Position numbers and translations under genes: made by a program. A stretch of 32,000 nt of DNA from an uncultured Lentisphaeraceae bacterium. GTDB taxonomy: Bacteria > Verrucomicrobiota > Kiritimatiellia > RFP12 > UBA1067. Positions 24,762-26,578 of this stretch are shown one piece after another. Position 1 is the stretch's first letter; every line of letters starts with the position of its first letter. The DNA lies in the NCBI GenBank assembly GCA_964579865.1, contig CAZOIS010000031.1, forward strand, positions 5,535 to 37,534. The letters run 5' to 3'. The notes under the pieces are model-generated. The model saw only the letters and a program-made list of their open reading frames with translations, ran no database searches and had not been told where the DNA came from.

Positions 24762-25160
24762 ATGAGGGAAAATCCGATGAGGGCGACCCTGCGGGTGACG
24801 AAGGCGCTGTCGGACGGGCAGCGGGTCAGGATCCTGATGATGCTGCGCGGCGGGGAACTGTGCGTGTGCCGCATTGTCGAGGTGCTGGCGCTGGCGCCGT
24901 CGACGGTCTCCAAGCATCTTTCGCTCTTGAGCGAGGCCGATCTGGTCGAGGTGCGCAAGGACGGGCGGTGGGCGTATTACCGGCTGCCGCAGGGGGCGGC
25001 GAGGAAGGCTGTCCGTCCGGTTTTGAAATGGCTGGAGGACACGCTCGGATGTGAGCCGGTTGTGGTTCGTGATGCGCAGAAGCTGGCCGGCGTTCTCGCT
25101 GGAGCCGTCGGTGGGGACGCAGGGAAGGTGGCGCGGAAGCCGAAGGAGAAGGAGTGCTGA
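24762..25160 (+). CDS. arsR: ArsR/SmtB family regulator immediately upstream of hgcA (HgcR-like)
   Basis: 132 aa: LSDGQRVRILMMLRGGELCVCRIVEVLALAPSTVSKHLSLLSEADLVEVRKDGRWAYYRL. It has the CVC motif, and its stop lies 3 nt before the hgcA ATG. Confidence 0.88.
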   Translation: MRENPMRATLRVTKALSDGQRVRILMMLRGGELCVCRIVEVLALAPSTVSKHLSLLSEADLVEVRKDGRWAYYRLPQGAARKAVRPVLKWLEDTLGCEPVVVRDAQKLAGVLAGAVGGDAGKVARKPKEKEC

Positions 25161-25163
25161 GCG

Positions 25164-26222
25164 ATGGGCGGTGCATGCTGTTGCGGAACATGCGGGCCTG
25201 AAGCGCCTGCGCGATGGGTCTCCGGTTCTGTGGAGACGGCGTCCGGGCCTGTGCCGCGCGTGGCGACGCGCTGGACGTTGCGCGATACGCTGGGCGCGTG
25301 GGCGGTTCGCAGCGGCATCGGGCGCATGCGTTACACGGTGCCGCCGGGCCTGTACGCGCTGGGGGTTCCGAAACCGGATTCGCCTGTGCTGGTCACGGCC
25401 AATTACAAACTGTCGTTCGATCATGTGCGGCGGGCGATGGACGGCCTGGACGCGTGGGTGCTGGTGCTGGACACAAAGGGCGTCAACGTCTGGTGCGCGG
25501 CGGGAAAGGGCACCTTCGGGACGGAGGAGCTGATCCGCCGCCTCGACCTCTGTCAGGTGGCCGCGGTGGTGGAACACAAGACCGTGGTCGTGCCGCAGTT
25601 GGGCGCGCCGGGCGTGGCGGCTTACGAGGTCAGCCGGCGAAGCGGTTTCAGGGTGGTGTACGGCCCGGTGCGGGCGTGTGACCTGCCCGCGTTCCTGAGG
25701 GCGGGCATGCGGGCGACGCTGGAGATGCGGCGAGTTCGGTTCGCGTTGCCGGACCGTTTGGTTCTCACGCCGAATGAACTGGCGCGGCTTTTTGTGCCGG
25801 CGGTTTTCGCGTTGGCGGTGTTTGTCGCGACTGCGGGTCTGGGTCGGCACGGTTACCGGTTGACGCGGGAACTGGCGTTTGGGGTTGCGGCGGCGGTCGG
25901 GATAAACTATCTGGCTGGGATCGTGCTGACGCCTGCGCTGCTGCCGTGGCTGCCGGGACGGGCGTTCGCGGCCAAGGGCGCGGTCGTCGGTGCGGTTATC
26001 GGGGCGGCGCTTGTCTGGTTCGGGCCGTTCGGCTGGCTCGGCGGTTTGTCGGCGGGGCTGCTCAGCGTGGCGGCCTGTTCGTTCTTGGGCCTGCGGTTCA
26101 CCGGTTCAACGACCTACACGTCGGCTTCCGGCGTCCGCAAGGAAATGGCTTGGGCGCTTCCCGTGCAAGGCGGTCTCGCGGCTGCAGGTCTCGCCGGCTG
26201 GATTGCGGCGCGGTTTGTTTGA
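25164..26222 (+). CDS. hgcA: Mercury methylation corrinoid protein HgcA
   Basis: 352 aa. It carries the diagnostic cap-helix motif GVNVWCAAGKGTFGTEEL (Cys111, nt 25494-25496) in a CFeSP-like corrinoid-binding domain. The C-terminal half has about five TM helices. hgcB is adjacent. Confidence 0.9.
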   Translation: MGGACCCGTCGPEAPARWVSGSVETASGPVPRVATRWTLRDTLGAWAVRSGIGRMRYTVPPGLYALGVPKPDSPVLVTANYKLSFDHVRRAMDGLDAWVLVLDTKGVNVWCAAGKGTFGTEELIRRLDLCQVAAVVEHKTVVVPQLGAPGVAAYEVSRRSGFRVVYGPVRACDLPAFLRAGMRATLEMRRVRFALPDRLVLTPNELARLFVPAVFALAVFVATAGLGRHGYRLTRELAFGVAAAVGINYLAGIVLTPALLPWLPGRAFAAKGAVVGAVIGAALVWFGPFGWLGGLSAGLLSVAACSFLGLRFTGSTTYTSASGVRKEMAWALPVQGGLAAAGLAGWIAARFV

Positions 26223-26263
26223 ACGCTCAACACGCAACTCTCAAGTTTAATGAACGTAAGAAC

Positions 26264-26578
26264 ATGAACTATCTGAAAGATGTGGTGACGCTGCGGCTGG
26301 ACCGGGATGCGTGCATCGGGTGCGGACGCTGCCTGGAGGTCTGTCCGCACGGCGTGTTCAACCTGGCGGGCGACAAGACGAGTATCGCGGACCGCGACGC
26401 ATGCATGGAGTGTGGGGCGTGCGCGCGCAACTGCCCCGTCGGCGCGCTGTACGTGAAGAACGGCGTGGGGTGCGCGGTAGGCATTCTGAACGCGAAGCTC
26501 GGCCGTACGTCGGGCTGCTGCGGCGGGGAGCAGGCGTGTTGCTGTCCGAGCGAGTCGGATAAATTGAATAAGGAGTAA
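26264..26578 (+). CDS. hgcB: Mercury methylation ferredoxin HgcB
   Basis: 104 aa. It has two CX2CX2CX3CP clusters (CIGCGRCLEVCP and CMECGACARNCP), an internal conserved-type Cys in GVGCAVG, and a C-terminal cysteine tail (SGCCGGEQACCCP). Confidence 0.9.
   Translation: MNYLKDVVTLRLDRDACIGCGRCLEVCPHGVFNLAGDKTSIADRDACMECGACARNCPVGALYVKNGVGCAVGILNAKLGRTSGCCGGEQACCCPSESDKLNKE

Follow-up and report, generated by a model that had tools for sequence, protein, structure and literature searches.

The mercury methylation genes hgcA and hgcB of an uncultured Lentisphaeraceae bacterium of the Kiritimatiellia type lie, in the 32,000-nt stretch of contig CAZOIS010000031.1 analyzed here (hereafter, the window), directly downstream of an arsR gene and among other arsenic-resistance genes. 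Comparison with related loci revealed a 16-bp dyad box at two promoter-like sites, P1 and P2, of this cluster, and the same box heads ars operons that lack hgcAB. These observations are probably best explained by arsenite-released ArsR repression of two tandem transcription units, one of which contains hgcAB. The proposed circuit would operate as follows: (i) the dimer of ArsR (encoded at 24762-25160), with Cys34 and Cys36 in its alpha3, would bind the boxes at P1 and P2 and block RNA polymerase, (ii) binding of As(III) would release ArsR from the boxes, (iii) the genes MT-arsR-hgcA-hgcB-ahpD, where MT denotes a methyltransferase gene and ahpD an AhpD-like gene, would be induced from P1 together with the P2 unit, and (iv) the genes arsD-arsA-unk211-ccdA-arsC-rhodanese-acr3, where unk211 encodes an uncharacterized protein and ccdA a CcdA-like protein, would be induced from P2 and by any read-through. 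Without arsenite, hgcAB would be kept low. The HgcAB proteins are expected to act as a methyltransferase dependent on S-adenosylmethionine (SAM) and cobalamin, as in Pseudodesulfovibrio mercurii.

The hgcAB pair, the adjacent ArsR and the promoter-like sites P1 and P2

The hgcA gene (25164-26222, plus strand) encodes a corrinoid methyltransferase with the cap-helix Cys111, a C-terminal transmembrane (TM) domain and an N-terminal ACCCGTCG extension, and hgcB (26264-26578, plus strand), separated from hgcA by 41 nt, encodes a 2x[4Fe-4S] ferredoxin with an internal Cys69 and a C-terminal CC/CCC tail. The HgcA product scores 409.9 bits with the curated equivalog model of NCBIfam (NF040863 HgcA_corrinoid, cutoff 275), and the HgcB product scores 118.1 bits with NF040864 HgcB_ferredoxin (cutoff 99). 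Two other assignments of HgcA were ruled out, namely, a HgcAB-like fusion paralog (NF043039, 189.8 against the cutoff of 285) and the gamma subunit of the corrinoid iron-sulfur protein, CFeSP (NF003195, 67.6 against 306). The cap-helix motif GVNVWCAAGKGTFG, that is, NVWCAAGK at residues 108-115, fits the pattern N(V/I)WCA(A/G)GK with the Co-ligating cysteine, and the codon of Cys111 is TGC at 25494-25496. By crude Kyte-Doolittle hydropathy, hydrophobic segments at residues 204-228, 236-260, 266-292 and 292-310 together with a hydrophobic C-terminus make four to five segments, consistent with a C-terminal domain of about five TM helices. In HgcB, CIGCGRCLEVCP and CMECGACARNCP form two CX2CX2CX3CP clusters and are accompanied by GVGCAVG and the CC...CCC tail; the cysteines are C17/20/23/27, C46/49/52/56, C69, CC84-85 and CCC91-93. 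The original prediction had placed both genes at these positions from the cap-helix motif with its cysteine codon, about five TM helices, the two Cys clusters, GVGCAVG and the CC/CCC tail, and had proposed scoring with curated hidden Markov models; coordinates, model scores and hydropathy agree with it, and the outcome in which HgcA falls among CFeSP or fused paralogs is excluded. By their sequences, hgcA and hgcB are a bona fide HgcA/HgcB pair, for which methylation of Hg(II) is predicted. To our knowledge, no cultured hgcAB-carrying member of Kiritimatiellia has been assayed for Hg methylation.

The arsR gene (24762-25160, plus strand) encodes an ArsR/SmtB repressor (PF01022 HTH_5, 52.9 bits; metalloregulator ArsR/SmtB NF033788, 87.7 against the cutoff of 55) with C34-V-C36 in alpha3; this protein is predicted to bind the boxes of P1 and P2. 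Its ELCVC sequence contains Cys34 and Cys36, the equivalents of Cys32 and Cys34 of the R773 ArsR. The third cysteine of the R773 site, the Cys37 equivalent, is missing from the window ArsR (CVCRIVE has no Cys at +3), and extra cysteines are present at its C-terminus. The C-x-C motif is kept in 99 of the 99 ArsR matches from related loci that cover the position, and a 64% identical ortholog resides inside the hgcAB-free ars operon of L007 (related loci and contigs carry L numbers). The arsR stop codon (25158-25160) lies 3 nt ahead of the hgcA ATG, and GAAGGAGAAGGAG occupies positions 25143-25155 within the last codons of arsR; the earlier description of a CVC-type ArsR that ends 3 nt before hgcA and carries the hgcA ribosome-binding site in its 3' end was thus accurate.

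The box was found by aligning the ahpD-arsD gap with L001 and L004, in which the -35, the -10 and the following block TTCGCCATGTAACGAA are conserved. The P2 site (26878-26922, plus strand) in this 91-nt gap is the best sigma-70-like site of the region (TTGACA-N18-TATGGT with an upstream TG, scan 10/12): its -35 TTGACA is at 26878-26883, its TG-extended -10 TATGGT at 26902-26907, and its dyad box TTCGCCATGTAACGAA at 26907-26922. The P1 site (23813-23855, plus strand) consists of -35 TTGACA at 23813-23818, a TG-extended -10 (TGaTAACTT) and the dyad box TTCGTCACATAACGAA at 23840-23855. P1 stands before the methyltransferase gene that heads MT-arsR-hgcAB-ahpD, and P2 stands before arsD-arsA...acr3. 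The pattern TTCGnCAnrTAACGAA has exactly two matches in the 32-kb window against 0.03 expected; both are at promoter positions, and at both P1 and P2 the box overlaps the -10 and the start region. The extended consensus from 80 sites, TATAT-TTCG(C/T)CA(T/C)ATAACGAA-AT, contains the dyad ATTTCG-N8-CGAAAT, the left arm of which overlaps the -10 hexamer, i.e., the position expected of a repressor operator. A generic search around the region returned chance-level repeats only.

From comparative evidence only, we predict autoregulation of arsR via the dyad operator at its own promoter. The second ArsR-family gene of the window, arsR2, is preceded by a different palindrome and has no such box, which makes the ArsR next to hgcA the likely binder of the boxes. 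Two tandem ArsR-box units, MT-arsR-hgcAB-ahpD and arsD...acr3, with possible read-through, fit the locus better than one operon does, given the conserved promoter-like site and the additional box in the ahpD-arsD gap. Spacing is tight across the cluster, with overlapping stop and start codons.

Distribution of the box and of hgcAB in arsenic loci

The relatives of HgcA in the species-representative genome set (60-92% identity) all belong to metagenome-assembled genomes (MAGs) of Kiritimatiellia, Verrucomicrobia or the Planctomycetes-Verrucomicrobia-Chlamydiae (PVC) group. The box occurs upstream of arsR or MT in L001, L002, L004, L005 and L006, as well as in L003 with one mismatch; it also occurs before arsD in L001 and L004, and directly before hgcA and before arsR in L010. 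TTGAC and a TG-extended -10 stand ahead of every box in L001-L006. A Lentisphaerae MAG without hgcAB (L007) has an exact box and -35 before arsD-arsA-arsR-unk211-ccdA-acr3-arsC. The P2-type site before arsD is conserved in L001, L004, L007, L034 and six metagenome contigs, and P1 is identical in the Logan contigs L132 and L133.

Metagenome contigs were scanned for TTGAC-N19-25-box, which yielded at least 120 contigs; the counts below are among the 120 listed. In 80 of them, a recognizable ars or hgc gene starts at most 150 nt downstream on the same strand, and the first gene after the box encodes ArsR (63 contigs), ArsD (6), HgcA (3), MT (3), unk211 (2), Acr3 (2) or ArsC (1), while 7 contigs have no room for a gene downstream. 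The box is located 16-113 nt upstream of arsR in the 63 contigs and in L001-L006. Dozens of the box-headed contigs carry hgcAB-free ars operons of the plain arsR-acr3 and arsR-arsC-acr3 types, and hgcA is present on 16 of the 120. The suggestion of the original prediction that regulation of hgcAB is tied to metalloid stress gains from the sharing of promoter and box with hgcAB-free ars operons, although this tie had already been published and is not new.

The order arsR-hgcA-hgcB-ahpD-arsD-arsA-unk211-ccdA-arsC recurs in L001 (HgcA 90% identical) and L004 (68%), the latter also having the upstream methyltransferase, and a short form, arsR-hgcAB-arsC, is found in L002, L003 and L005. Positions 23693-24994 of the window, which span the P1-MT-arsR junction, are matched by two independent Logan assemblies at 100% and 99.9% identity. 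A chimeric contig is ruled out by these two assemblies and by the presence of the gene order in independent MAGs and contigs; the survey of neighborhoods in relatives, which had been proposed along with the gene calls, demonstrates that the hgcAB-ars linkage is not unique to this assembly.

About ten hgcAB gene orders were observed in box-headed ars clusters (the 16 listed box-bearing contigs, L010 and L135). They include arsR-hgcAB-arsC-acr3, hgcAB-arsR-arsC-(rhodanese)-acr3 (in L103, hgcAB-arsR-arsC-acr3), MT-arsR-hgcAB, arsR-arsC-hgcAB-acr3 (L078), arsD-arsR-hgcAB-unk211-ccdA-acr3, arsR-unk211-ccdA-arsC-acr3-hgcAB, MT-hgcAB-ahpD-[box]-arsD-arsA-arsR, arsR-PEP mutase-arsC-hgcAB-MT-acr3 (L135; PEP, phosphoenolpyruvate) and hgcAB-[box]-arsR-P-type ATPase-unk211-ccdA-arsC-rhodanese-acr3 (L010). 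In clusters that begin with hgcA (L010, L013, L103 and L108), the box immediately precedes this gene. In L135 (ENA ERZ27250307, a 217-kb contig), the box-headed cluster at 2971-7945 has the PEP mutase-family gene beside hgcAB, and MT overlaps the hgcB stop.

Both loss and fusion of hgc genes were observed. In L034 (Ga0116147_1004373), the order is arsR-arsD-arsA-unk211-ccdA-arsC-acr3, otherwise syntenic with the window; at about 515-705, two remnants persist: directly after the arsR stop, a 37-nt piece homologous to the 5' end of hgcA, which encodes VSAGGCCGTCDP followed by a stop, and, ahead of P2, about 55 nt from the 3' end of ahpD. They are the scar of a deletion that removed hgcA-hgcB-ahpD from a window-like operon. 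In another lineage, a natural HgcB::unk211 fusion (P0274, 331 aa) is encoded directly after hgcA in the context P-type ATPase-arsR-hgcA-fusion; it is identical in two independent sequencing runs (L137, 3782-4777, and L138, 209-1204) and, as a Rosetta-stone indication, hints at physical cooperation of the two proteins.

The variety of gene orders and the scar in L034 can also be read in another way, with hgcAB as mobile cargo that repeatedly enters and leaves metal-resistance islands, so that co-location would reflect island dynamics and not a selected regulatory or functional tie to arsenic. This explanation would fit the transposase fragment and the foreign low-GC methylase segment that adjoin the unit in the window, as well as the retention of As(III) resistance by Pseudodesulfovibrio mercurii ND132 without hgcAB. 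We nevertheless consider it rather unlikely: hgcAB stays behind an ArsR box whatever the order, including the four loci with the box directly before hgcA, the linkage persists over HgcA identities of 48-92%, and one lineage has fused HgcB to a membrane protein of the ars island.

Another explanation concerns the number of units. A single P1 transcript could run from MT through acr3 as one long operon, P2 being non-functional or a secondary operator. All genes are indeed on the same strand with gaps of 3-91 nt, and no intrinsic terminator-like site was found in the intergenic gaps (the predicted sites lie inside coding regions, and their count equals the shuffled expectation); the short-form loci L002, L015, L045 and L078 have arsC and acr3 after or around hgcAB and lack a second box. 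One long operon is unlikely given that the ahpD-arsD gap contains the conserved TTGACA-N18-TATGGT and an exact box, that the P2-type site is kept in L001, L004, L034 and the hgcAB-free L007, where it is the promoter of the operon, and that arsD is the first gene after the box in the six contigs counted above. The original assignment of hgcAB to an arsenic detoxification transcription unit therefore stands in part: the pair is genuine and appears to be wired into the ars genes via a shared promoter and box, but the single operon gives way to two probable units, as P2 has its own box.

Several points weigh against arsenite-released repression of two ArsR-box units. The operator assignment is purely comparative, and both ArsR binding and induction by As(III) are predicted. 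The consensus used in the promoter scan is of the sigma-70 type and may not be that of Kiritimatiellia. No recognizable ars or hgc gene follows the box in 33 of the 120 contigs; they may represent other regulon members or fortuitous matches, the latter being plausible in a very large database. The window ArsR lacks the third cysteine of the R773 site. In ND132 (bioRxiv 10.1101/2022.10.17.512643), the regulator of hgcAB also responded to S-adenosylhomocysteine (SAH), and the range of effectors could therefore extend beyond As(III). Deletion of hgcAB in that strain left As(III) resistance unchanged, with methylarsenicals not detected; co-regulation is thus no proof that hgcAB takes part in arsenic detoxification.

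Some of these points would also suit an ArsR that senses Hg(II), another thiophilic metal or the SAH/SAM status, with hgcAB under the control of its own substrate or cofactor state and the ars genes riding along, since the ND132 regulator responded to SAH-raising treatments besides As, HgcAB consumes SAM, and the window ArsR has two of the three R773 cysteines plus the extra C-terminal ones; such an effector is quite improbable in view of the plain arsR-acr3 and arsR-arsC-acr3 operons, a classical As(III) circuit, headed by the same ArsR orthogroup and box in dozens of the listed contigs, and of the invariant C-x-C in the ArsR matches.

The arsenic island and its accessory genes

The genes downstream of hgcB are all on the plus strand and agree in identity and position with the originally proposed series of an AhpD-like gene, arsD, arsA, two genes for Cys-rich membrane proteins, arsC, a rhodanese gene and acr3. 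The AhpD/CMD-like protein (26583-26849; PF02627, 50.6 bits, and TIGR00778) has a CxxC motif, CQPC, and a Cys-rich tail. It is followed by the As(III) metallochaperone gene arsD (26941-27348; NF033727, 118.7 against the cutoff of 90), the pump ATPase gene arsA (27362-29143; TIGR04291, 785.2 against 650), the gene for the uncharacterized membrane-anchored protein unk211 (29168-29803; no Pfam match) and the gene for a divergent CcdA/DsbD-like membrane protein (29816-30535; no Pfam match of the window protein even at E<=10). The arsC product (30605-31039) is an arsenate reductase of the low-molecular-weight protein tyrosine phosphatase (LMW-PTP), thioredoxin type (PF01451, 71.9 bits; TIGR02691, 148.5 bits, under the cutoff of 174.3). 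The rhodanese gene (31036-31443; PF00581, 47.5 bits) overlaps arsC by 4 nt, and the gene for the arsenite efflux permease Acr3 (31440-32000; PF01758 SBF, 86.7 bits), which is cut by the window end, has a GTG start at 31440 that overlaps the rhodanese stop; the partial Acr3 products are 92-94% identical in L015, L034 and L103. The window thus contains an ars operon with the ArsD-ArsA pump, an arsenite permease and an arsenate reductase.

In unk211, the N-terminal part carries CGPGCSCNC and the C-terminal part GCGAGGCGPRGC; the protein further has a single TM helix and a thioredoxin-fold domain that lacks CxxC. Its thioredoxin fold is confidently modelled, as predicted with AlphaFold2 and Foldseek. 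The family comprises 124 clusters at E<=0.001; among the 120 clusters listed, none has an informative name, and a Pfam domain is found only in the HgcB fusion. The invariant cysteines C15, C23, C200 and C205 belong to the terminal Cys clusters. Homologs with 59-72% identity to the CcdA-like protein bear the name CcdA and match PF02683/PF13386. Members of this family (P0001-P0120) share the invariant motifs SACCTLP, with a vicinal Cys pair, and SLACNPG, and differ from the canonical CcdA encoded at 18461-19162, which has LSPCHL and LGPCTF. The CC-x-x-P motif resembles TM1 of MerT, and the CcdA-like protein may be a transporter of thiophilic metals or metalloids rather than an electron shuttle.

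The genes for unk211 and the CcdA-like protein are always paired, with or without hgcAB. Because the pair also occurs in hgcAB-free ars islands (for example, L007, L009 and L034), its two proteins are ars parts. The AhpD-like gene follows hgcB in L001, L004, L006, L035, L059, L115 and L126, and it is found in the hgcAB-free ars loci L051, L086 and L119 as well. All three proteins are hence best regarded, from their genomic distribution, as general ars-island components that are not specific to hgc. The nomination of the upstream methyltransferase, the AhpD-like protein and the membrane pair as hgcAB accessories met with a mixed outcome: occurrence in hgcAB-free islands speaks against the AhpD-like protein and the membrane pair, whereas the HgcB::unk211 fusion speaks for cooperation in one lineage, and the close relatives of the methyltransferase do track hgcAB.

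Cys-rich protein ends recur across the cluster: at the HgcA N-terminus (25164-25196; ACCCGTCG, which is outside the HgcA family model and is kept in L001-L004), the HgcB C-terminus (26510-26545), the AhpD-like C-terminus (26800-26849; CC...CC), the ArsD C-terminus (27290-27348; CCC...CC) and both ends of unk211 (29205-29240 and 29760-29803). The identities between proteins of the window and L001 are uneven (ArsD and ArsA 96%, HgcA 90%, CcdA-like 89%, HgcB 83%, AhpD-like 71% and unk211 70%), and in L004 the CcdA-like protein is 94% identical and HgcA only 68%; recombination within the island may be the cause, or the proteins may simply be under different constraints.

The upstream MT gene (23885-24745, plus strand) encodes a class I SAM-dependent methyltransferase of a small family (Methyltransf_31/25/11), with 58 clusters at E<=1e-35 and 63 at E<=1e-10 among 5.8 billion proteins. 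Its AlphaFold2 model (pLDDT 92) has a generic class I methyltransferase fold, and the residues C62, C126-H127 and H19 are invariant in the family. Assignment as ArsM was rejected: the scores are 44.8 with NF008823 (cutoff 263) and 51.6 with NF041537 (cutoff 510), with a match to the Rossmann core only; there are two invariant cysteines against the Cys triad of ArsM, and ArsM is not in the top 50 PDB fold matches. The MT gene is missing from most related hgcAB loci. Relatives with at least 60% identity stand beside hgcAB at every locus with readable context; of three more distant homologs with context, one (43%) is beside hgcAB in a different order and two (51% and 41%) are not. A role of MT in loading the HgcA corrinoid is not needed, because SAM is the methyl donor of HgcAB and the methyl group is taken directly from it (PMC11588087).

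The arsenic island spans about 17 kb and starts at about 14.9 kb. The hgc genes are in its middle, because an upstream ars block (14.9-19.16 kb) directly precedes arsR-hgcAB in relatives: the block from arsR2 to the DsbD_TM gene is immediately upstream of arsR-hgcAB in L001-L005 and L010. This organoarsenical block, entirely on the plus strand, is headed by arsR2 (14929-15231; PF01022 HTH_5, 47.5 bits) and further includes genes for an ArsP-type permease (15336-16634; PF03773 ArsP_1, 239.3 bits; the start is uncertain, 15252 or 15336) and, by Pfam, a Thioredoxin_3 protein (17169-17399), a DGC-domain protein (17460-17843), a thioredoxin (17862-18446) and the canonical DsbD_TM/CcdA (18461-19162). 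Upstream of arsR2, a promoter-like TTGACG/TATTAT and the palindrome TTTGGTTATT-N6-AATAACAAA (14888-14912), unlike the P1/P2 box, were found, and no TTCG...CGAA box was present there. With this separate palindrome for arsR2, the island seems to have two ArsR-operator pairs that differ from each other.

A 4.7-kb low-GC segment (19163-23831, mixed strands; GC 0.52-0.56 against 0.60-0.71 in the flanks) splits the island. No DNA match to the segment occurs in L001-L005, where 0.6-2.3 kb of other DNA takes its place. The segment contains a Y2_Tnp transposase fragment (19176-19586, plus strand; Pfam), a gene for an 822-aa DNA methylase (20991-23459, minus strand; HmaB/DUF1156_MTase/PglX-like by PADLOC) and two unannotatable minus-strand open reading frames; PADLOC recognized no complete defense system in it, only the methylase. 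The Rfam scan of the window gave a single match, the full-length nhaA-I RNA (RF03057, 11030-11082, plus strand; 54.8 bits against the gathering threshold of 37), located among genes of TRAP transporters (DctQ, 11819-12325, and DctM, 3411-5183), and hence no riboswitch or other known RNA near hgcAB; the window has no tRNA genes.

A bolder interpretation is that HgcAB of the PVC group is not primarily an Hg enzyme and would instead be an arsenite-induced corrinoid/SAM methyltransferase with As(III) or another thiophilic metalloid as its substrate, supplied via a Cys relay. In such a relay, the substrate would pass from periplasmic unk211, reduced or partnered by the CcdA-like protein, to the C-terminal cysteines of HgcB and then to HgcA; export of the product would fall to the ArsP-type permease of the island, and MT and the AhpD-like protein would be auxiliary. 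We regard this interpretation as very doubtful. If it were true, Hg methylation by the abundant freshwater Kiritimatiellia would be an arsenic-gated side reaction.

Comparison with known systems

The association of hgcAB with ars genes and the control of hgcAB by ArsR have been published, including for Kiritimatiellae (PMC7438021, PMC10349881, PMC11984097, bioRxiv 10.1101/2022.10.17.512643). McDaniel et al. 2020 depict hgcAB beside acr3, arsC, arsM and arsR (PMC7438021, Fig. 6), and PMC10349881 mentions arsA and arsD on hgcAB contigs. Peterson et al. 2025, on Lake Mendota, describe arsR-like genes, with acr3/arsC nearby, mostly at hgcA of Kiritimatiellae (Fig. 4c), report lower hgcA/gyrB transcript ratios for arsR-preceded hgcA, and note that Kiritimatiellae have the most abundant hgcA in some lakes and little hgcA transcript (PMC11984097). 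For ND132, Gionfriddo et al. 2023 showed that hgcAB is under the control of ArsR2, which responds to As (bioRxiv 10.1101/2022.10.17.512643). A literature search for the box sequence with arsR returned irrelevant matches only. Apparently new, within the literature searched, are the operator-like box with its broad occurrence, the layout with two promoters, the finding that the regulator is orthologous to ordinary ars repressors, the scar in L034, the HgcB fusion and how far the island extends.

The published link between hgcAB and arsenic is thereby resolved to a specific 16-bp DNA site and two promoters that are open to direct experiment, which offers a handle on hgcAB regulation in an environmentally dominant hgcA-carrying group. 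If hgcAB lies behind an arsenite-released ArsR operator, gene counts would overstate the methylmercury potential unless arsenite is present, and arsenic geochemistry would be a predictor of hgcA expression. The gene orders, the scar and the fusion provide material for the question of the native role of hgcAB.

In the mer relay MerP-MerT-MerA, a periplasmic protein with a Cys pair is encoded beside a membrane protein that has vicinal cysteines followed by proline in a TM helix. The likeness of the window locus to this relay, by analogy only, lies in unk211 with its CC-motif membrane partner and in the Cys-rich tails of the cytoplasmic partners; unk211, however, has a thioredoxin fold whereas MerP is ferredoxin-like, and the membrane partner in the window is probably a member of the DsbD/CcdA family.

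The E. coli R773 arsRDABC operon encodes a repressor with CVC in alpha3, ArsD, ArsA, an arsenate reductase and an arsenite permease, and has an autoregulated operator at its promoter. The window shares the CVC-type ArsR, ArsD, ArsA, an arsenate reductase and an arsenite efflux permease, and it differs from R773 in several features: (i) the permease is Acr3 rather than ArsB, and ArsC is of the LMW-PTP/thioredoxin type, (ii) the operator has another sequence, and a second promoter stands before arsD, (iii) the window ArsR lacks the third Cys of the site, and (iv) MT, hgcAB and the genes for the AhpD-like protein, unk211, the CcdA-like protein and the rhodanese are additional. Derepression of the R773 ArsR needs only Cys32 and Cys34, a point made in the ND132 paper (bioRxiv 10.1101/2022.10.17.512643).

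The published hgcAB-ars neighborhoods, as far as the parts of PMC7438021, PMC10349881 and PMC11984097 used here describe them, are similar to the window in having hgcAB flanked by arsR, acr3, arsC, arsM and occasionally arsA/arsD. These parts describe gene presence; a promoter or operator, the two-unit layout, the arsD-arsA pump together with the unk211-CcdA pair, the arsP block, the scar and the HgcB fusion were not found in them. The arsR2-hgcA-hgcB locus of ND132 resembles the window in that an ArsR-family gene is directly upstream of hgcAB (in ND132, it is co-transcribed with them and the As response is shared with other ars operons), and the ND132 operon ArsR5-ArsP-ArsE-DGC matches the first four gene types of the window block at 14.9-19.16 kb. 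In contrast to ND132, where no other ars genes adjoin hgcAB and the four-Cys site of the regulator is unlike those of ars-operon repressors, hgcAB of the window is embedded among arsD, arsA, arsC and acr3, and the window ArsR has the canonical alpha3 CVC. A word search of the ND132 paper found no operator, whereas the window locus has a nameable, shared predicted operator and, unlike ND132, a regulator orthologous to the repressors inside hgcAB-free ars operons.

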